Origin: Terriglobales bacterium
Lineage (GTDB): Bacteria > Acidobacteriota > Terriglobia > Terriglobales > SCQP01
Direction: 5' to 3'
Length of the DNA stretch: 56,216 nucleotides
Assembly: GCA_051959955.1 (NCBI GenBank)
Contig: JBQCEU010000021.1
Span: 1-56,216, forward strand
A program made the translations under genes and the position numbers. How positions within the stretch are numbered: the first letter of the stretch is position 1; every line of letters starts with the position of its first letter. The notes below the pieces were generated by a model. It ran no database searches. It was not told the origin of the DNA and was given only the letters and a program-made list of their open reading frames with translations. This document shows, in pieces, positions 32,700 to 56,216 of the stretch.

Positions 32700-32794
32700 G
32701 GAAGCGCATGTGGCCGGGTGGCTGCCCTGGTCTTCAAAACCAGTGTGGCGTCCGCTGGACGCCGGATCGGTTCGACTCCGATGCGCTTCCGCCA
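32700..32794 (+). tRNA. selC: tRNA-Sec (selenocysteine, anticodon TCA)
   Basis: 95 nt. 8-bp acceptor stem GGAAGCGC/GCGCTTCC; 6-bp D stem with a 4-nt loop; anticodon loop CTTCAAA; long variable arm GTGGCGTCC..GGACGCCGG; T arm ATCGG-TTCGACT-CCGAT; discriminator G plus CCA. The arm-by-arm layout matches E. coli selC. Confidence 0.95.
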
Positions 32795-45371: not shown

Positions 45372-46382
45372 TCAGCCGGCGCGGCGTTGCGGTTCGACGT
45401 GCAGCCGGGCGCCCATGCGCTCCAAAAATAACCGCAGGATGGACTCATCCCACCATTGCTGGCGCGCTTCATAGAGCAGCACCGCGGCAGCCTGCGCATG
45501 GGTCCAGGCAGGTTTGTAGGGCCGCGAAGTGGTGAGGGCGTCATAGGCGTCCGCCACTTGCAGCACCCGCGCCAGAATGGGGATCTCCTCCCCCGCCAGC
45601 CCGTCCGGATAGCCCCGGCCATTCCAGTGTTCATGATGATGGCGGATGATGGGCAGCACCCGCTGCAGGCTGCGCAGCGGTTGGCAGATCTTCTCGCCGG
45701 TCACGGGGTGGCGCCGGAGGATGGCCATTTCATGGGCGTCCAGCGGGCCCGGCTTGCGCAGAATGGCATCCGGCACGGCGATCTTGCCGATATCGTGCAA
45801 TACGCCCCCGCGGCGCAGGGCGACAATGTCCTCCTCGCTCAGCCCCATGTCCTGGCCGAGTTGGGCGGCATAGCTGGAGAGGCGGGCGCAATGTCCCTCG
45901 GTGTAAGGATCGCGGGCCTCGACCCCCAGGGCCAGCGAGAACAGTACGGTCTCGGCGTTTTCGAGTTCATCGGTGAACTGCTTCAACTTCAACAGACTCT
46001 TCACCCGGGCAATCAACTCCGGGGAGTCCAACGGCTTGTTCACAAAATCGTCGGCGCCGGCTTCAATCCCCTGCAGTCTGGCCTCCCGTTCGGTCAGGCC
46101 AGTGACCAAAATTACCGGAATCAAACGCGTGGCAGGGTCTTCCTTGAGCTCGCGACAGAGTTCGATACCACTGCGGCCCGGCATGACCACGTCCAGCAGA
46201 ATGAGGTCGGGCGGCCGTTCACGCACAATGCGTTCGGCCTGCTCGGCATCGGCGGCGCCTTCCACTTGGTAGTGCTGCCCCAAGAGGAGTTCCTGGGTCA
46301 GAATGCGGCTGCTTTCGTCGTCCTCCACTACGAGGACGCGGAACTCTCGGCGCGGGCGCAGAAATTCGGGGGAGGCGGGCAC
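45372..46382 (-). CDS. response regulator with HD-GYP phosphodiesterase domain
   Basis: REC domain (VLVVEDDESS.., DLILLDVVMPG). HD-GYP domain (LHDIGKIAVP, HHEHWNGRGYPDGL). GTG start. Confidence 0.9.
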   Translation of the reverse strand: MPASPEFLRPRREFRVLVVEDDESSRILTQELLLGQHYQVEGAADAEQAERIVRERPPDLILLDVVMPGRSGIELCRELKEDPATRLIPVILVTGLTEREARLQGIEAGADDFVNKPLDSPELIARVKSLLKLKQFTDELENAETVLFSLALGVEARDPYTEGHCARLSSYAAQLGQDMGLSEEDIVALRRGGVLHDIGKIAVPDAILRKPGPLDAHEMAILRRHPVTGEKICQPLRSLQRVLPIIRHHHEHWNGRGYPDGLAGEEIPILARVLQVADAYDALTTSRPYKPAWTHAQAAAVLLYEARQQWWDESILRLFLERMGARLHVEPQRRAG

Positions 46383-46501: not shown

Positions 46502-46723
46502 CTAGCGGGGGCGAAAGTACGCGCCCTGCTGATCGGTGATGGTGACGATGCGTTCGGTGGCTAGCAATTCAGCCAAGGCTGCCTGAATGGCATCTTCGCC
46601 ATAGCGATCTTCGTAGTGTCCGCCATCGGTGGTGTTAAGAAACATGAACACCGCCACGTAGTCCATCCGCTCGCCGGCATGAGCTGCCAACAGGTTCAGC
46701 ACGTCGCTGGCAATGGCCGTCAT
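46502..46723 (-). CDS. hypothetical 73-aa protein translationally coupled to pdaD
   Basis: ATGA start/stop overlap with the upstream gene. Moderately high GC3. No recognisable motif. Confidence 0.45.
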
Positions 46724-47265
46724 CCGCCCAGCAAGATGGCGGCAGACAGCACTGTCGTCCACAGCCCGCGCTTATCGCCCACCGCTGACTGACTTATATT
46801 GATCGTGCGGACGATCTTGTTGGAGATGCGATAGATCTCCTTTTTTTCGTCCCAGGAGCGGTCGGGATCGAATTCCACATTGAGGGTGGTGGCCAACATC
46901 TCCGCCGCCAGCTCCTCGGCGTATTCGCCCGCCTGCTGCTCGGTTTCGCCAAAGGAATGGTGCTCCGACAAATAGCCGTAGGTGTTGCGGTCGGCGGGCA
47001 GGGCCAGACCAATCGAGGCGGCGATCAGACGGTGCGGTTCGCGGGTGGAATTTTCGCTGAGCACGGCGAACACCACTTCGCCCGGGCTGAGTTGCTTCAG
47101 CCCCTGGGCGCGGGGAGTCAGTTTGCATCGCGGCGGGAATATGCTGGAGACGCGCACCAGATTGAAGGCGGCTACGCCGGCATCACGCAAGGCAAGCTCG
47201 AAGCTGGTCAGGCGTTCGCGATGCTTGCCCACACCTTTGGTGAGGAAGATCTTCTTGGCAACCAT
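46720..47265 (-). CDS. pdaD: pyruvoyl-dependent arginine decarboxylase
   Basis: [45 protein letters not shown], with the VSS self-cleavage site. The track ORF starts at an upstream TTG (47292). Confidence 0.9.
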
Positions 47266-47399
47266 GGATGGACTCGAAAACCGGGAATTCAAAACCTAAC
47301 AAATCCTGCCGCCAGCGTCAATGAAAACCGCAGTGCGCTGTCTCCGGCGCACCCGGTCCGCTCCCCTGCCGGGCGCTGGCCGGGAGCGTACAATCGGGC

Positions 47400-52044: not shown

Positions 52045-52069
52045 GCCCACGGCCGCCGGCCGCGTGGGC
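52045..52069. terminator. GC-rich hairpin between convergent purH and the carrier-protein gene (possible bidirectional terminator)
   Basis: GCCCACG..CGTGGGC 7-bp outer stem with an inner GGCC pairing. Only weak T-runs on either side. Confidence 0.3.
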
Positions 52070-52363
52070 TCAGCCGTTAGCGGCCATCGGCGCGGCGGCG
52101 AGCTGCGTCTTGCGGGCAATGAAGGCAATGAGCTGCCGCAGGGTGCTGAAATTGGCGGGTACCAGTTCGTGGTCCTGGATTTGGATTTGGTAGCGATCTT
52201 CCAGGTGGCTGACCAGGACCAGCACGCTGGTGGAATCGAGCAAGGTTTCAAACAGCGGGGTGTCGAGGTCCAACGTCCGGGTAGGCGCGGCAGCCAATTC
52301 GGTGAGGATGAACTGGCGCAGTTGAGCCGTCAGATCGTGGGCAGAGGCAAGCGGGTCAGCCAT
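52070..52363 (-). CDS. acyl/peptidyl carrier protein
   Basis: 97 aa from the ATG at 52363. LDLDTPLFETLLDSTSVLVLVSHLE, with a DS phosphopantetheine-attachment-type motif. Confidence 0.8.
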   Translation of the reverse strand: MADPLASAHDLTAQLRQFILTELAAAPTRTLDLDTPLFETLLDSTSVLVLVSHLEDRYQIQIQDHELVPANFSTLRQLIAFIARKTQLAAAPMAANG

Positions 52364-52509
52364 AAGCAACCGTGGTGAGGAGAGTCGGGCGATGAGACTT
52401 GCCGCCACCCAAGATGGGATGCCCCTCTCTGGCGTCCAGCAGCATTGCCGCCCTTTAGCCAAGCACTCTCACCCGAGGTGAATCAGCATTTTGGCTTCCA
52501 ACTACCTAG

Positions 52510-53715
52510 GTGAAAGGGGTACTCCAAGCGTGGGTGGAATTCTCGTGGACCGAAGAACAACAGCGAAGCTTTGATCAGGCCCGCCAGTTTGCCCGCCAGG
52601 AATTGTGCCATGTGGCGGAAGCAGGCGACGAGGCGGCCGCGGAAGCAGCCTGGCGGCGGCATTGGAGTGCTTGCGCCGGCTTTGGCATCCAGGGCCTGAA
52701 CATCCCGACCGCCTACGGCGGCTTGGGCCTGGATACGCGCACGGCGGTTCATGTGCTCGAGGGGTTGGGGCAGGGCTGCGATGACAACGGGTTATTGATG
52801 GTCCTGGGCGCGCAGTTGTGGAGCGTGCATCCGCCCTTGATTGCCTTCGGGACCGCGGAACAGAAGCGCACCTGGCTGCCGCTGCTGGCGCAAGGCGCGC
52901 AAGTGGGGGCCTTCGCCTTAACCGAGCCGGAGAGCGGTTCGGACGTGTTCCACCTGCGCACGCGCGCCTACCCGGAGCGCGGCGGCTTCCGCCTGGAAGG
53001 CATCAAGACCTTCATCACCAACGCGCCGCTGGCGGACGTGTTTCTGATGTTTGCCGCCACCGATCCTCATGCCGGCTACTTTGGACTGACCAGCTTTCTG
53101 GTGCGTCGCAGCACCGAGGGCATTGCCGTCGGGGCGCCCATGGCCAAAATGGGGTTGGAGACCAGCCCCATGGCCGAGGTGAGTTTCCAGGGGACGTGGG
53201 TGGGGCCGGAAGCGGTGTTGGGGGAAATCGGCGGCGGCGGGGCGGTGTTGTTGCACACCCTGGAGTGGGAGCGCGGCTGCCTGCTGGCCCCGGCGCTGGG
53301 CACCATGGAGCGGTTGTTGCACTCCACCGTCGCCTATACGCGGGCCCGCAAGCAGTTCGGGCGGCCGGTGATGGAATTCGAGGCGGTGGGGCAGCAACTG
53401 GCGGAGATGCGGCTGCGCCTGGAAATGTCACGCCTGTTGACCTACCAGTTCGCCTGGCTCAAGGATCAGCAACAGCCGGCGGGCGTGCAGGCCAGCATGG
53501 TCAAGCTTTACCTGAGCGAGAGCCTGCGGCGCTGCAGCGAGTTGGCCGTGCATCTGCATGGGGCCAGCGGCTACATGCGCGAGCTGGAGTTTGAGCGCAC
53601 CTGGCGCGATGCCATGGCCAGCAGCCTTTACTCGGGCACCACCGAAATGCAGCACAACCTGATCGCCGAAAGCCTGTTGCGGCCGGCGGCGCGGACCGAG
53701 GAGGCGGGACGATGA
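52510..53715 (+). CDS. acyl-CoA dehydrogenase family flavoprotein
   Basis: 401 aa, GTG start. LTEPESGSDV and a C-terminal helical domain. YSGTTEMQ sits where YEGT is usual. Confidence 0.9.
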   Translation: MKGVLQAWVEFSWTEEQQRSFDQARQFARQELCHVAEAGDEAAAEAAWRRHWSACAGFGIQGLNIPTAYGGLGLDTRTAVHVLEGLGQGCDDNGLLMVLGAQLWSVHPPLIAFGTAEQKRTWLPLLAQGAQVGAFALTEPESGSDVFHLRTRAYPERGGFRLEGIKTFITNAPLADVFLMFAATDPHAGYFGLTSFLVRRSTEGIAVGAPMAKMGLETSPMAEVSFQGTWVGPEAVLGEIGGGGAVLLHTLEWERGCLLAPALGTMERLLHSTVAYTRARKQFGRPVMEFEAVGQQLAEMRLRLEMSRLLTYQFAWLKDQQQPAGVQASMVKLYLSESLRRCSELAVHLHGASGYMRELEFERTWRDAMASSLYSGTTEMQHNLIAESLLRPAARTEEAGR

Positions 53716-55250
53716 GAGCGCGTAGGCTCAGCGAGGCGGTGGAGGCCGCCATGGAGGCGCACGGCGGGCGGGTGGCCATCCGTGGGGCGCGAGGGGAAGA
53801 GATGAGCTACCGGGAACTGGAGGCCGCCAGCCGCGGCTGGGCCGCTCGGCTGCAGGCCGCCGGCATCGGTCGTGGCGATCGGGTGGGGGTCTACCTCGCC
53901 AAGTCGCCCGCCGCGGTGGTGGCGCAACTCGCGGTGATGCGGGCGGGCGCGGTGTATGTGCCCTTCGACGCCTGGGCGCCCAAGGCCCGGATCGAGGCGC
54001 TGGCGGCCGACTGCGGCGTGGCGGCGGTACTGACCGACGCGCGGCGGCGGGCGGAGATCGCCAGTTGGCTGCGGCCGCCGGAACGGGTCTGGGAGGTGGA
54101 GAGCGAGGCGGTGCCGGCCGGCGCCGCCTGGCGGCCGCCGGCGGGCACCAGTGAGGAACTGGCCTACATCCTTTACACCTCCGGTTCGACCGGCGTGCCC
54201 AAGGGGGTGATGTTGAGCCACGGCCACGCCCTCAATTTCACCGACTGGGCGGCCACGGCCGCCCGGCTGCAGCCTGGCGACCGGGTCGCCAGCCAGGCGC
54301 CGTTTCACTTCGATCTGTCCATTTTTGACCTGTGGGCGACGCTCAGCCGCGGGGCCACCGTGTGTCTGCTGGATCCGGTGACCGCGCGGTTTCCGCGGGC
54401 CACCGCCGACTGGATCCGCGACCAGGCCATCACCGTCTGGTATTCGGTGCCGTCGGCGCTGGTGCCCATGCTGCCGCAGGCGGACACCGTGGCGCAGGGA
54501 CAGTTGCGGGAGGTGATCTTCGCTGGCGAGCCCTTTCCTCCAGCCGCCCTGGCGGCCTGGCGACGGGCGCTGCCCGCGGCCTGCTTTCACAACTGGTACG
54601 GGCCCACCGAAACCAACGTCTGCGCCCATCATGCCCTGCCGCCGGGGCCGCCGGGCGAATCCGAGCCGGAGCCGCTGCCCATCGGCACCGCCTGCCCGGA
54701 TTTCGAGCTGGCGGTGTGGGATGAGGAGCACCGTCCCGTGGCGCCGGGGGTGGAAGGCACGCTGTGGGTGCGGGGTCCGGGGCTGCTGGCCGGTTACTGG
54801 GGCGATCCGGCGCGCACGCAGGCGGTGACTTGGGAGCGGGAGGCGGCGGGCGGGCGGCGGGAACGCTGGTACAACACCGGCGATCTGGTCCGTCAGGGCG
54901 CCGGCGGGGAGCTGTATTTTCACGGGCGGCGCGACGACCTGGTCAAATGCCGCGGCTACCGCATCTCGCTACGCGAGATCGAGCAGGCGCTGGAGGGTTG
55001 TTCCGGCGTCCGCCAGGCGGCCGTCGTCGCCCTTCCGCAGCCGGCGCAGGCAACGTCGCTGGCGGCCTTTCTCCTGGCGGCGCCGGGTGAAGAGGCCGCT
55101 CCGCTGACGGCGCGGGTACGAGCGGAGCTGCGGGAGCGGCTGCCCCACTATATGCTGCCGGAGCGCATCGAGGTGCGCGACGCCTTTCCCATGACCGCCA
55201 CCGGCAAGACGGACCGCCTGGGGCTGTTGCGGCTGGCCGCAGGCGCCTGA
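53712..55250 (+). CDS. free-standing amino-acid-type adenylation enzyme (ANL superfamily, NRPS A-domain/DltA-like)
   Basis: Core motifs LAYILYTSGSTGVPKGV, FHFDLS, NWYGPTETN, YNTGDLV, GRRDDLVKCRGYRISLREIE, and TATGKTDR. ATGA overlap with the upstream gene. Confidence 0.9.
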   Translation: MRARRLSEAVEAAMEAHGGRVAIRGARGEEMSYRELEAASRGWAARLQAAGIGRGDRVGVYLAKSPAAVVAQLAVMRAGAVYVPFDAWAPKARIEALAADCGVAAVLTDARRRAEIASWLRPPERVWEVESEAVPAGAAWRPPAGTSEELAYILYTSGSTGVPKGVMLSHGHALNFTDWAATAARLQPGDRVASQAPFHFDLSIFDLWATLSRGATVCLLDPVTARFPRATADWIRDQAITVWYSVPSALVPMLPQADTVAQGQLREVIFAGEPFPPAALAAWRRALPAACFHNWYGPTETNVCAHHALPPGPPGESEPEPLPIGTACPDFELAVWDEEHRPVAPGVEGTLWVRGPGLLAGYWGDPARTQAVTWEREAAGGRRERWYNTGDLVRQGAGGELYFHGRRDDLVKCRGYRISLREIEQALEGCSGVRQAAVVALPQPAQATSLAAFLLAAPGEEAAPLTARVRAELRERLPHYMLPERIEVRDAFPMTATGKTDRLGLLRLAAGA

Positions 55251-56216
55251 TGGCAAGCGCGAGGAGCATGGGAAACGAGGCGGGAGCGTCGGCTGGGGCC
55301 GCCTGGCGCAGTCGCCGCCGCCCGGGTCTGGGCCTGCTCTCCTACCGGGCGCTGCAGTCGCTGCTGCGCCGCTGCGGCATGAACCGCTGGCTCGAGCTGC
55401 GGCTGCACCAGATAATCGGCGTAGCGCCTCACGACCTGCACCCGCCCGCGCGGCTGGCCCGCGGGCTGGAGGTGCGCGAGGCCGGCCTGGAAGACTTCGA
55501 CGCCCTCCAACAACTGCGCCCGCCGGTGGGGGTGGATTATGCGACGCGCTTCGGGCAGGCGCATCGCGCCGTGGTCGCCTGCCTCGAGCGCCGCCTGGTG
55601 GCCTTTGTCTGGGTGGTGCGGGGACCGGCCCGGCTGCCGGCCTCCTTCGGTTGTCATTGGCAACTCAACGGCGGCATGGCCTGGCTGTACGATCTCTACT
55701 CCCATCCCGACGTGCTGGGCGCGGTGCCCCACCTGTATGCCTATTTGCGCGAGCATCCGCCCGGGCCCGGGGTGCGCTTCTACGTCGGGCAGACGGATTT
55801 CGACAACCGCCGTTCGCATCTCGCGCACCAAAGCCTGGGTTACCAGGCTTGGGCGCAGTTGTGGACCGCGCGCTGTGGCGGCTGGCGGCGGCATGCCAGC
55901 CGCGCCTTGACCTCGCGGCCGGGCATGCGGCGCTGGCGCGGCTACCGCGCCGGCGCCAGCATCCCGCTGCCGCTGCTGGCGCCGCTGGCCGGCGAGGCCG
56001 CGAACACCCCCCGCGACGCCGAGGGGGTCCGGTTGCAGTGCCTCTGCGGCCGGGAGGTGATGGCGGAGGACGGAAACCTGACCTGTACCTGCGGCCGCCG
56101 GCTGGGGAGCCACGAAGGCGGTGTGCTCTGCCTGGGTGAGCCGGCGCCCTATTGGGGTGAAATTCCCCAGTTGGAGATGCGCGCCCTGCTGTTGGAAGCC
56201 GAGCACCACGGCTGGC
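55250..56216 (+). CDS. hypothetical GNAT-like protein with CxC..CxC zinc ribbon, 3' end beyond window
   Basis: The ATG overlaps the upstream stop by 1 nt (TGATG). Very high GC3 to the window edge. Not in the track because no stop codon is reached. LQCLCGREV..LTCTCGRRL ribbon. Confidence 0.6.
   Translation, partial: MASARSMGNEAGASAGAAWRSRRRPGLGLLSYRALQSLLRRCGMNRWLELRLHQIIGVAPHDLHPPARLARGLEVREAGLEDFDALQQLRPPVGVDYATRFGQAHRAVVACLERRLVAFVWVVRGPARLPASFGCHWQLNGGMAWLYDLYSHPDVLGAVPHLYAYLREHPPGPGVRFYVGQTDFDNRRSHLAHQSLGYQAWAQLWTARCGGWRRHASRALTSRPGMRRWRGYRAGASIPLPLLAPLAGEAANTPRDAEGVRLQCLCGREVMAEDGNLTCTCGRRLGSHEGGVLCLGEPAPYWGEIPQLEMRALLLEAEHHGW

Follow-up and report, generated by a model that had tools for sequence, protein, structure and literature searches.

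The window analysed here, a 56,216-nucleotide stretch of a Terriglobales contig, ends in a cassette that proves to be a genuine small gene cluster, conserved in uncultured soil Acidobacteria. We read it, with a probability of roughly 55%, as a type II NRPS-like system of five genes and six domains, in which proline would be loaded on a carrier protein, oxidised, off-loaded by a GNAT domain and tailored by a methyltransferase and a kinase. Such a cassette would have a familiar start, in prolyl-carrier chemistry, but a tailoring end that differs from those of known pyrrole pathways.

Gene layout and conservation

Within the window, a gene for a 97 aa stand-alone peptidyl carrier protein on the minus strand (52070..52363) is divergent from three plus-strand genes, encoding an ACAD-fold flavoenzyme of 401 aa (52510..53715; GTG start at 52510, with a second possible GTG start at 52534), a stand-alone adenylation (A) enzyme of 512 aa (53712..55250), and ORF4 (55250..56216), which starts at 55250, has no stop before 56216 and is cut at the window edge after 322 of its 617 codons. 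The gene overlaps named in the original prediction were read directly in the sequence, with the ACAD stop and A-domain start sharing ATGA at 53712-53715, and the A-domain stop and ORF4 start sharing TGATG at 55248-55252. The intergenic stretch from which the carrier gene and the ACAD operon diverge (52364..52509) is presumed to contain the promoter region, and a simple scan of it found no sigma-70-like or terminator-like site. No C, KS or TE domain was found in the window, as originally noted, or in the full-length related loci.

The gene order is syntenic in related Acidobacteriota, recurring in about 20 independent loci with 36-76% protein identity, and the cassette is therefore more than a chance arrangement. 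All relatives belong to the class Terriglobia of the Acidobacteriota, in agreement with the host suspected beforehand. In related loci a gene for an APH-family kinase follows ORF4, beyond the window, and the complete five-gene set is present in 14 Terriglobales/Terriglobia MAG loci, usually next to purH. Variants of this arrangement include a single lineage (L038/L039) in which the five-gene set has the GNAT and methyltransferase as separate genes, and one locus (L037) with ACAD-A-GNAT. Close forms of the GNAT domain were found only together with the trio of carrier, ACAD and A genes, whereas more distant stand-alone GNAT relatives exist without it. Where the methyltransferase comes without a GNAT domain, the locus retains the kinase, with a single exception, and has no A, PCP or ACAD gene.

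A predicted proline-loading and oxidising trio

The core trio most likely loads proline on the carrier and oxidises it, as in known pyrrole pathways, judging from the sequences of all three proteins. The carrier matches PF00550 in a profile search (E 4e-8) and has its phosphopantetheine-attachment Ser within LLDSTS; this Ser is conserved, with the (L/I)LDS motif kept in 22 loci. Its closest PDB matches are the carrier PigG and the Bmp1 carrier (6cxt_A), the latter from the Bmp3-Bmp1 entry 6CXT (PMC8857579).

The A enzyme contains AMP-binding and AMP-binding_C domains and passes the curated cut-off for the amino-acid adenylation domain TIGR01733 (383.5 bits versus 317.4), and its best single-domain PDB match is PltF (6o6e; 302 bits). 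In an alignment of the pocket region, its nine pocket residues, DLFYIAWVC, were identical at 9/9 positions to those of 7thn_B, which was deposited with PigG as an L-proline--[L-prolyl-carrier protein] ligase, while the pocket of PltF (DLLYLALVC) is identical at six of the nine. Asp235 is present in the pocket and Lys517 was taken from the A10 motif, TATGKTDR. The code DLFY[IVLA]A[WL]VCK is retained in 17 orthologues with 48-76% identity. We therefore predict the A enzyme to be an L-proline--[carrier protein] ligase, which narrows the substrate to L-proline beyond the amino acid of the original prediction.

The third protein has ACAD N, M and C domains and is likely a prolyl-S-PCP dehydrogenase, on sequence grounds. 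Its best solved relative is AnaB (4irn; 340 bits, E 2e-100, nearly the whole length), followed by Bmp3 (6cxt_B; 246.5 bits) and PigA (5zw0; 234 bits), compared with no more than 218 bits for primary-metabolism ACADs. Furthermore, it has the sequence YSGT, with Ser in place of the MCAD-type Glu, and both the YSG(T/S) and LEWERG motifs are conserved across the related loci. Its top NCBIfam matches, RedW (354.7 bits) and PigA (339.9 bits), fall under their equivalog cut-offs of 650 and 500, respectively, so that oxidation by either two or four electrons is conceivable. Taken with the pocket, PltF and PigG/Bmp1 matches, the AnaB/Bmp3/PigA matches support the model put forward at the outset, of an amino acid loaded on a carrier and oxidised while tethered in the manner of PltF/PltL/PltE.

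The GNAT–methyltransferase fusion and its partner kinase

A near-identical metagenome contig (L001:440-2293) supplied the full-length ORF4 of 617 aa, in which the reading frame continues past 56216 into a class I SAM methyltransferase (Methyltransf_11/12/25 matches at residues 358-463), following the GNAT-fold domain and a four-Cys ribbon. This methyltransferase domain and the fifth gene, for the kinase, are additions to the original prediction. ORF4 appears, from its sequence, to be a previously undescribed acyltransferase–methyltransferase fusion. AF2 models were obtained for the full-length protein (pLDDT 84.6, pTM 0.86) and for its N-terminal 250 aa (pLDDT 89.9), and when the latter was compared with the PDB using Foldseek, 50/50 among the matches listed were GNAT-type acyl- or aminoacyl-transferases, led by VipF, MshD, tandem GNATs, PamZ and A-PGS (E 1e-7 to 1e-4), although identity to these was low (6-20%). 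The modelled GNAT fold of the N-terminal half (about residues 45-240; 55382..55969, plus strand), which had been suspected from the sequence, is thus well supported. PF00583 was found in 7 of 32 ORF4 homologues, while no Pfam model matched the window's own GNAT domain in the profile search. Only 43 representatives of this tiny GNAT family were counted among 1.84 billion, and 18 of its residues are invariant. Acyl-CoA is the usual donor of GNAT enzymes, and by eye the β4-α3 loop, HPDVLGAV, does not fit the canonical Q/RxxGxG/A.

The Cys-rich ribbon (CxC...CxC; 56033..56134, plus strand), annotated as a Zn-ribbon, was also recognised correctly; C264, C266, C279 and C281 are invariant in the 32 homologues, and the AF2 model shows short β-strands here. 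In a distant relative (P0077), the corresponding ribbon lies at the N terminus and matches PF03966 as well as ribbon chains of the UPF0434 type (Trm112-like). The kinase retains the catalytic K, HGDFWxGN and (V/I)DW motifs, and its profile has its closest PDB matches in the ACAD11 APH domain (E 1.6e-6) and 3dxp, with the ACAD11 match limited to some 75 residues surrounding the catalytic loop. The comparisons run gave no substrate clue for either the methyltransferase or the kinase. Distant relatives with a fused methyltransferase-APH protein adjoin a gene for a Wzx-type flippase.

Proposed pathway, alternatives and known systems

In the pathway we favour, the A enzyme would adenylate L-proline and load the holo-carrier protein, a step that draws on strong sequence evidence. 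The AnaB/PigA/RedW-like flavoenzyme would then oxidise prolyl-S-PCP to either a dehydroprolyl unit (two electrons, as for AnaB) or pyrrolyl-2-carboxyl-S-PCP (four electrons, as for PltE, PigA and Bmp3). Fold, gene fusion and co-inheritance suggest that the GNAT domain takes the proline-derived acyl group from the carrier thioester and passes it onto an acceptor's amine or hydroxyl group, and it would so stand in for the C, KS, TE or α/β-hydrolase off-loading of known pyrrole pathways. A hand-over of this kind had been raised as a possibility, and the modelled GNAT fold supports it, whereas the usual acyl-CoA donor of GNAT enzymes and the distant GNAT relatives without a trio speak against it. 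Lastly, the ribbon-methyltransferase and kinase, probably an older two-gene module that is also present without the trio, may have that same acceptor or the product as their substrate; by analogy with kinase-plus-methyltransferase pairs elsewhere, one conceivable outcome is a methyl-phosphate ester.

With the proline trio unchanged, the GNAT domain could instead be an ordinary acetyl-CoA-dependent N-acetyltransferase that, with the methyltransferase and kinase, modifies or detoxifies (self-resistance) a proline-derived product released by hydrolysis or an unlinked enzyme. Its top fold matches are indeed all acetyltransferases dependent on CoA, among them PamZ and phosphinothricin acetyltransferase, which serve in self-resistance, its more distant relatives occur without the trio, and acetylation, methylation and phosphorylation are the classical small-molecule modifying activities, a description that this set would fit. 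We nevertheless hold this doubtful, as none of the loci was found to encode a TE, C or hydrolase for product release, the close GNAT forms are confined to loci with the trio, unlike the methyltransferase and kinase, and the CoA pyrophosphate-binding motif is non-canonical. Slightly less probable again is a variant of the favoured pathway that differs in its second step, where oxidation would stop after two electrons and a reactive pyrroline-carboxyl or dehydroprolyl unit, rather than a pyrrole, would be transferred, with downstream chemistry using the imine or enamine. The lead of AnaB over Bmp3 and PigA among solved structures points this way, but the scores of the RedW and PigA HMMs, which describe four-electron enzymes, are no lower than that of AnaB (355 and 340 bits).

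AMP-ligase, APH kinase and ACAD are known together from levulinate catabolism and ACAD10/11, and this shared combination, with ACAD11 and 3dxp as the best kinase matches, would fit a kinase that phosphorylates a carrier-tethered hydroxy-acyl group (e.g. hydroxyprolyl) and an ACAD-fold enzyme that eliminates the phosphate and has no oxidase role. Given the shortness of the kinase match, the inheritance of the kinase with the methyltransferase even in loci without an ACAD, and the almost end-to-end match of the ACAD to AnaB, a genuine prolyl-ACP oxidase, we regard this as improbable. Most improbable, and disfavoured, is D-alanyl (DltA/DltC-like) or fatty-acyl (FAAL/MbtM-L-N-K-like) loading for a cell-envelope component. 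AMP-ligase, ACP, ACAD and GNAT do make up the MbtM/L/N/K architecture, and the DltA subfamily and exosortase-associated ligase HMMs gave 272 and 254 bits, respectively; however, all these HMMs scored under cut-off (476 and 560 being the cut-offs for DltA; MbtN 72.6 bits versus 700), the A domain lies outside both the FAAL and DltA groups and has a Pro-type pocket with Asp235, the carrier and ACAD both fall among prolyl systems, and neither dltB/D nor lipid genes lie nearby, the downstream genes not forming a lipid locus.

Among known systems, methyl-phosphate esters are built by kinase and methyltransferase pairs in E. coli O9a WbdD and guanitoxin GntI/GntJ. The likeness, by analogy only, is that of a small-molecule or glycan kinase genetically coupled to a class I SAM methyltransferase, fused in distant relatives, while no sequence similarity to WbdD could be detected. 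LuxI-type AHL synthases, FeeM-type N-acyl amino acid synthases and aminoacyl-PG synthases (MprF/A-PGS), the last among the ORF4 fold matches, have the GNAT fold in common with ORF4 and set a precedent for a carrier-bound acyl or aminoacyl donor in place of CoA, although we know of no ribbon-methyltransferase fusion in these families. In mycobactin mbt-2, MbtM is an acyl-AMP ligase, MbtL an ACP, MbtN an acyl-ACP dehydrogenase and MbtK a GNAT acyltransferase, a logic of free-carrier loading, tethered ACAD-fold desaturation and GNAT-fold off-loading that the cassette would resemble. However, its ligase belongs to the amino-acid A domains and has a Pro pocket, unlike a fatty-acyl-AMP ligase of the MbtM type, its ACAD scores far below the MbtN cut-off, and no sequence relationship between its GNAT domain and any named family was detectable.

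Closest are the type II NRPS prolyl-carrier modules, which provide the best solved relatives of all three trio proteins. Like the cassette, the pyrrole and dehydroproline modules PltF/PltL/PltE, PigI/PigG/PigA, RedM/RedO/RedW, Bmp4/Bmp1/Bmp3 and AnaC/AnaD/AnaB combine a free-standing Pro-type A enzyme and carrier with an ACAD-fold flavoenzyme. The cassette differs in that its ACAD falls under the RedW and PigA equivalog cut-offs, and it adjoins purH among Terriglobales housekeeping genes instead of lying in a large biosynthetic cluster. In place of the KS, C, TE, halogenase or α/β-hydrolase acyltransferase that lies downstream in those pathways, it continues with the fusion of GNAT, ribbon and methyltransferase, followed by an APH kinase.

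The cassette at the right edge of the window

A minus-strand gene for a peptidyl carrier protein of 97 residues (52070–52363; PF00550, E 4e-8; motif LLDSTS) diverges from three plus-strand ORFs, which encode a flavoenzyme of the acyl-CoA dehydrogenase (ACAD) fold with N, middle and C domains (52510–53715), a stand-alone, single-domain adenylation (A) enzyme of 512 residues with AMP-binding and AMP-binding_C domains (53712–55250), and a fourth protein (ORF4), whose reading frame runs from 55250 up to the window edge, 56216, without a stop. Reading the sequence directly, the plus-strand genes overlap through ATGA at 53712–53715 and TGATG at 55248–55252, while ruvX and purH, both housekeeping genes, are the upstream neighbours. 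The original prediction had described a carrier gene diverging from ACAD, A-domain and open ORFs with overlapping stops and starts in housekeeping surroundings, and all of this is present as described.

Scans for promoters, terminators and Rfam families near the locus detected no element at the cassette. The ends of purH and the carrier gene converge on a GC-rich inverted repeat (GCCCACG ... CGTGGGC, 52045–52069), which may be a hairpin that terminates transcription from both sides but lacks a T-run; a simple terminator scan called no hairpin there. GC content is 72–73% across the A gene and ORF4 (window 54000–55999) versus 60–69% in the flanking housekeeping genes, a difference too slight to support recent transfer. 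Elsewhere in the window there is a tRNA-Sec gene (32700–32794, plus strand, anticodon TCA, Rfam 74.9 bits), so the organism probably uses selenoproteins, and by eye the translations of two minus-strand ORFs upstream of the cassette resemble a response regulator with an HD-GYP-type output domain (45372–46382) and a pyruvoyl-dependent arginine decarboxylase (46720–47292).

A proline-type entry module

The A enzyme scored 383.5 bits against TIGR01733 (amino-acid adenylation), passing the curated cut-off of 317.4, and its closest single-domain solved structure was PltF (6o6e, 302 bits; L-proline--[L-prolyl-carrier protein] ligase), with DltA at ~200 and PheA at 180 bits. We mapped the Stachelhaus positions with the PheA numbering and sequence, self-consistently with D413 and K517, and in the HMMER alignment pocket positions 235–331 read DLFYIAWVC in both our enzyme and 7thn_B, and DLLYLALVC in PltF (six of nine the same), with Lys517 being the K of TATGKTDR. 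7thn_B was deposited as an L-proline ligase and is presumably PigI, because PigG shares its entry. Extraction of the specificity code, proposed with the original prediction, gave a pocket of the L-proline type by the PheA numbering, and the code DLFY[IVLA]A[WL]VCK is kept across 17 orthologues (48–76% identity). Literature searches with the code string found nothing relevant, and exact-sequence searching matched no record for either the A enzyme or the ACAD, while for the carrier it returned six metagenome contigs of a near-identical strain (99–100% protein identity). The best solved relatives of the carrier were the Bmp1 carrier domain (6cxt_A), PigG and other type II peptidyl carrier proteins, and its LLDS is conserved, so that the modifiable serine on which the original prediction depended is present.

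Likewise, the closest solved relative of the ACAD was AnaB (4irn, E 2e-100, 340 bits), ahead of 6cxt_B (246.5 bits), which is Bmp3 in complex with Bmp1 (PMC8857579, a review), PigA (5zw0, 234 bits) and the best primary-metabolism ACAD (218 bits). The top NCBIfam models were RedW (354.7 bits, cut-off 650) and PigA (339.9 bits, cut-off 500), and as both scores fall under the equivalog cut-offs we term the entry module related to, and not an equivalog of, known proline modules. A Ser replaces the catalytic Glu of MCAD (LYSGTTEMQ), the same as in AnaB, and LEWERG of our enzyme aligns to MEWERG of AnaB, with LEWERG and YSG-type motifs both conserved among orthologues. The AnaB structure paper reportedly places the catalytic base in the LEWERG/MEWERG motif. 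The sequence fits both a two-electron oxidation, as with AnaB, and a four-electron oxidation, as with PigA, PltE and Bmp3. Judged from sequence, the trio of A enzyme, carrier and ACAD is a clear relative of the proline modules of type II NRPS systems, its three independent components all pointing the same way.

ORF4, the kinase and their co-inheritance

One of the six contigs of the near-identical strain (L001) extends beyond the window edge, and in this ORF4 is 617 residues long with few differences from the window copy. The window-encoded part matched no Pfam or NCBIfam model, while Methyltransf_11, 12 and 25 matched residues 358–463 of the full protein, and this C-terminal domain, outside the window, is of the Rossmann-type SAM-binding kind with fold matches to class I methyltransferases. 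AlphaFold2 modelling gave a pLDDT of 84.6 and a pTM of 0.86 for the full protein (32 homologues) and a pLDDT of 89.9 for the first 250 residues, which the window encodes. Using Foldseek, all 50 matches listed for the N-terminal model were GNAT-type transferases (E 9e-8 to 6e-4, TM ~0.4–0.47), including VipF, mycothiol synthase MshD, tandem GNATs, PamZ, alanyl-PG synthase/MprF and AAC(6'). The model thus predicts a GNAT fold, in keeping with the GNAT-like N-terminal half originally noticed, and PF00583 was reached by 7 of 32 homologues (best E 5.8e-6). Read by eye, the beta4-alpha3 loop is HPDVLGAV and does not match the canonical CoA pyrophosphate-binding motif Q/RxxGxG/A. Eighteen residues of the domain are invariant, among them four Arg, D148, S151 and H193, and this conservation argues for an active enzyme. 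Exhaustive phmmer searching found only 43 representatives of this GNAT family in 1.84 billion proteins, and a more distant member (33% identity) is stand-alone and without the trio.

The Cys-rich ribbon that had also been noticed follows the GNAT domain as CxC...CxC, with four invariant Cys, and is recognised as Trm112/UPF0434-like in distant relatives. When the full ORF4 model was searched with Foldseek, it resembled many generic class I methyltransferases (FPP-MT, PKMT2, AtmM/RebM, RlmA, Rv2067c) with no clue to substrate, and no specific nearest neighbour of the methyltransferase domain was found. In L001 a further gene overlaps the ORF4 stop, with 149 codons visible, and in relatives the gene after ORF4 encodes an APH-family phosphotransferase of ~310–390 residues, with PF01636 recorded for the orthologues. 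Its catalytic motifs are intact, with K51, H202-G-D204...N209 and D226-W227 invariant in 15 sequences (HGDFWxGN and (V/I)DW), and these together with PF01636 place it among the APH/choline-kinase-like enzymes, the window strain itself showing the 149 N-terminal residues.

We searched the fetched loci with tblastn and found the complete set, a minus-strand carrier gene divergent from plus-strand ACAD, A, GNAT-ribbon-methyltransferase and APH genes, in 14 loci (named as L007–L009, L016–L021, L025, L027, L031 and L036), in all but L031 directly after purH. The gene order on which the original prediction relied thus recurs in relatives. Cassette copies truncated by contig ends were found in L013–L015, L022 and L023; in L038 and L039 the GNAT (239 residues) and the ribbon-methyltransferase (376 residues) are separate, overlapping genes of the same cassette, and L037 has ACAD, A and a stand-alone GNAT. 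Full-length homologues of the fusion came only from Terriglobales, Acidobacteriales and Terriglobia MAGs and from soil metagenomes, with no cultured isolate among the 24 loci from GTDB species-representative genomes.

A GNAT-less homologue was found in nine loci (L024, L026, L028–L030, L032–L035), with an APH gene right behind the methyltransferase in all except L032 and no A, carrier or ACAD gene in any. In more distant relatives methyltransferase and APH are fused in one protein of ~680–720 residues, beside a Wzx-type flippase gene. Because the ribbon-methyltransferase and kinase occur without the trio and are fused in distant relatives, they appear to be an older two-gene module, and the distribution across loci suggests that the GNAT domain was gained or lost together with the proline trio. 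In L010–L012 (e.g. L010:8475–12091) the fusion, here of ~680–700 residues, directly follows the flippase gene (Polysacc_synt), an arrangement that recalls WbdD, the bifunctional kinase and methyltransferase by which O-antigen chains are capped.

Downstream of the cassette, many loci have RsbW/STAS, MsrA and DAO genes in synteny; we do not count them as members because the unfused L038 has different downstream genes. The RsbW-like anti-sigma kinase (HATPase_c_2) and STAS anti-anti-sigma genes follow APH in most loci, namely L007 (14632–15484), L009, L013–L022, L025, L026 and L029, are absent from L038 and occur also in some loci without the trio, and their adjacency may reflect a link in regulation or nothing more than synteny. 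In one Terriglobales lineage (L007:5189–6868, L008, L018) an M20 ArgE/DapE-family deacylase gene lies between purH and the carrier gene; beside a putative N-acyltransferase cassette, this enzyme might hydrolyse or recycle the product.

Proposed pathway and known systems

We propose that L-proline would be loaded on the carrier and oxidised by the flavoenzyme while tethered, that the GNAT domain would acylate an acceptor from the carrier thioester, with the phosphopantetheine arm mimicking CoA, and that methyltransferase and kinase would modify the same acceptor or the product. GNAT-fold enzymes with carrier-bound donors include MbtK, LuxI, FeeM and aminoacyl-PG synthases, and coupled kinases and methyltransferases build methyl-phosphate esters in WbdD and guanitoxin GntI/GntJ. 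In its full form, a new small metabolite or envelope decoration, in which the GNAT moves a pyrrole-2-carbonyl or dehydroprolyl group directly from the carrier to an acceptor that is also given a methyl-phosphate group by the coupled kinase and methyltransferase, and the cassette is vertically inherited beside purH in uncultured Terriglobales, this reading is tentative, and we give it a chance of roughly one in five. The original prediction had an amino acid loaded, oxidised while tethered and perhaps passed to a GNAT, which the kinship of the trio and the predicted fold support, and our sequence comparisons narrow it to L-proline and extend it by two catalytic activities, methyltransferase and kinase.

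The GNAT could instead be an ordinary acetyl-CoA enzyme, serving for example in self-resistance; however, no locus contains an alternative releasing enzyme, and close forms of this GNAT were found only with the trio. An elimination by kinase and ACAD, as in Lva or ACAD10-11, would draw on the kinase profile, whose matches to PDB sequences were weak (E 1e-6 or worse) and were led by the ACAD11 kinase domain (E 1.6e-6 over ~75 residues), but the kinase is co-inherited with the methyltransferase and not with the ACAD, and we consider this unlikely. D-alanylation by DltA/DltC, which the original prediction had named as a contrary outcome, was rejected as the DltA HMMs scored 272 and 266 bits (cut-offs 476 and 560) and no DltB or DltD was found in the locus neighbourhoods. 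A FAAL/MbtM/L/N/K-type system was likewise rejected, the A domain being of the amino-acid type with Asp235, MbtN scoring 72.6 bits against 700 and the partner genes being absent. For WbdD, which is absent from the PDB sequence matches of P0077 (a distant methyltransferase-APH fusion) and from the best 50 fold matches, sequence relation is undetectable and the comparison is therefore a functional analogy only.

Through gene fusion, translational coupling and co-inheritance, a proline entry module is here hard-wired to a GNAT, a methyltransferase and a kinase with no assembly-line partner. The original prediction saw no condensation, PKS or thioesterase domain, and we found no KS, C, TE or pathway acyltransferase domain in the window or the full-length loci. 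Our literature search found no description of a cassette of this kind, and its continuation by GNAT-ribbon-methyltransferase and APH, its freedom from an assembly line, its conserved housekeeping position and its occurrence in uncultured Terriglobales are not described in the literature found. The locus would indicate an as yet unknown proline-derived metabolite; its producers are uncultured soil Acidobacteria, an abundant group about whose secondary metabolism little has been learnt. Should the GNAT accept its acyl group from the carrier, this would be a new release logic, usable to engineer pyrrolyl amides or esters, and the full reading, if true, would give the pyrrole modules of type II NRPS systems a novel route of off-loading, with a pyrrolyl-amide organophosphate as a novel product. 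With five genes in ~6 kb, the cassette is compact enough to be synthesised directly and expressed in another host.

Pyrrole natural products such as prodigiosin, pyoluteorin, clorobiocin and bromopyrroles, and also anatoxin-a, are as a rule entered through the thiotemplated oxidation of proline, and to our knowledge the tethered product passes in every characterised case to a PKS, an NRPS, a thioesterase or an alpha/beta-hydrolase transferase. To the MbtM/L/N/K system the cassette is analogous in architecture only. The cassette shares a stand-alone A enzyme, its pocket of the L-proline type and a free carrier with the known type II NRPS pyrrole modules, and its ACAD is a putative prolyl-S-carrier dehydrogenase; however, whereas these hand the pyrrolyl unit to a larger pathway, the cassette instead has a GNAT-methyltransferase and an APH-family kinase.
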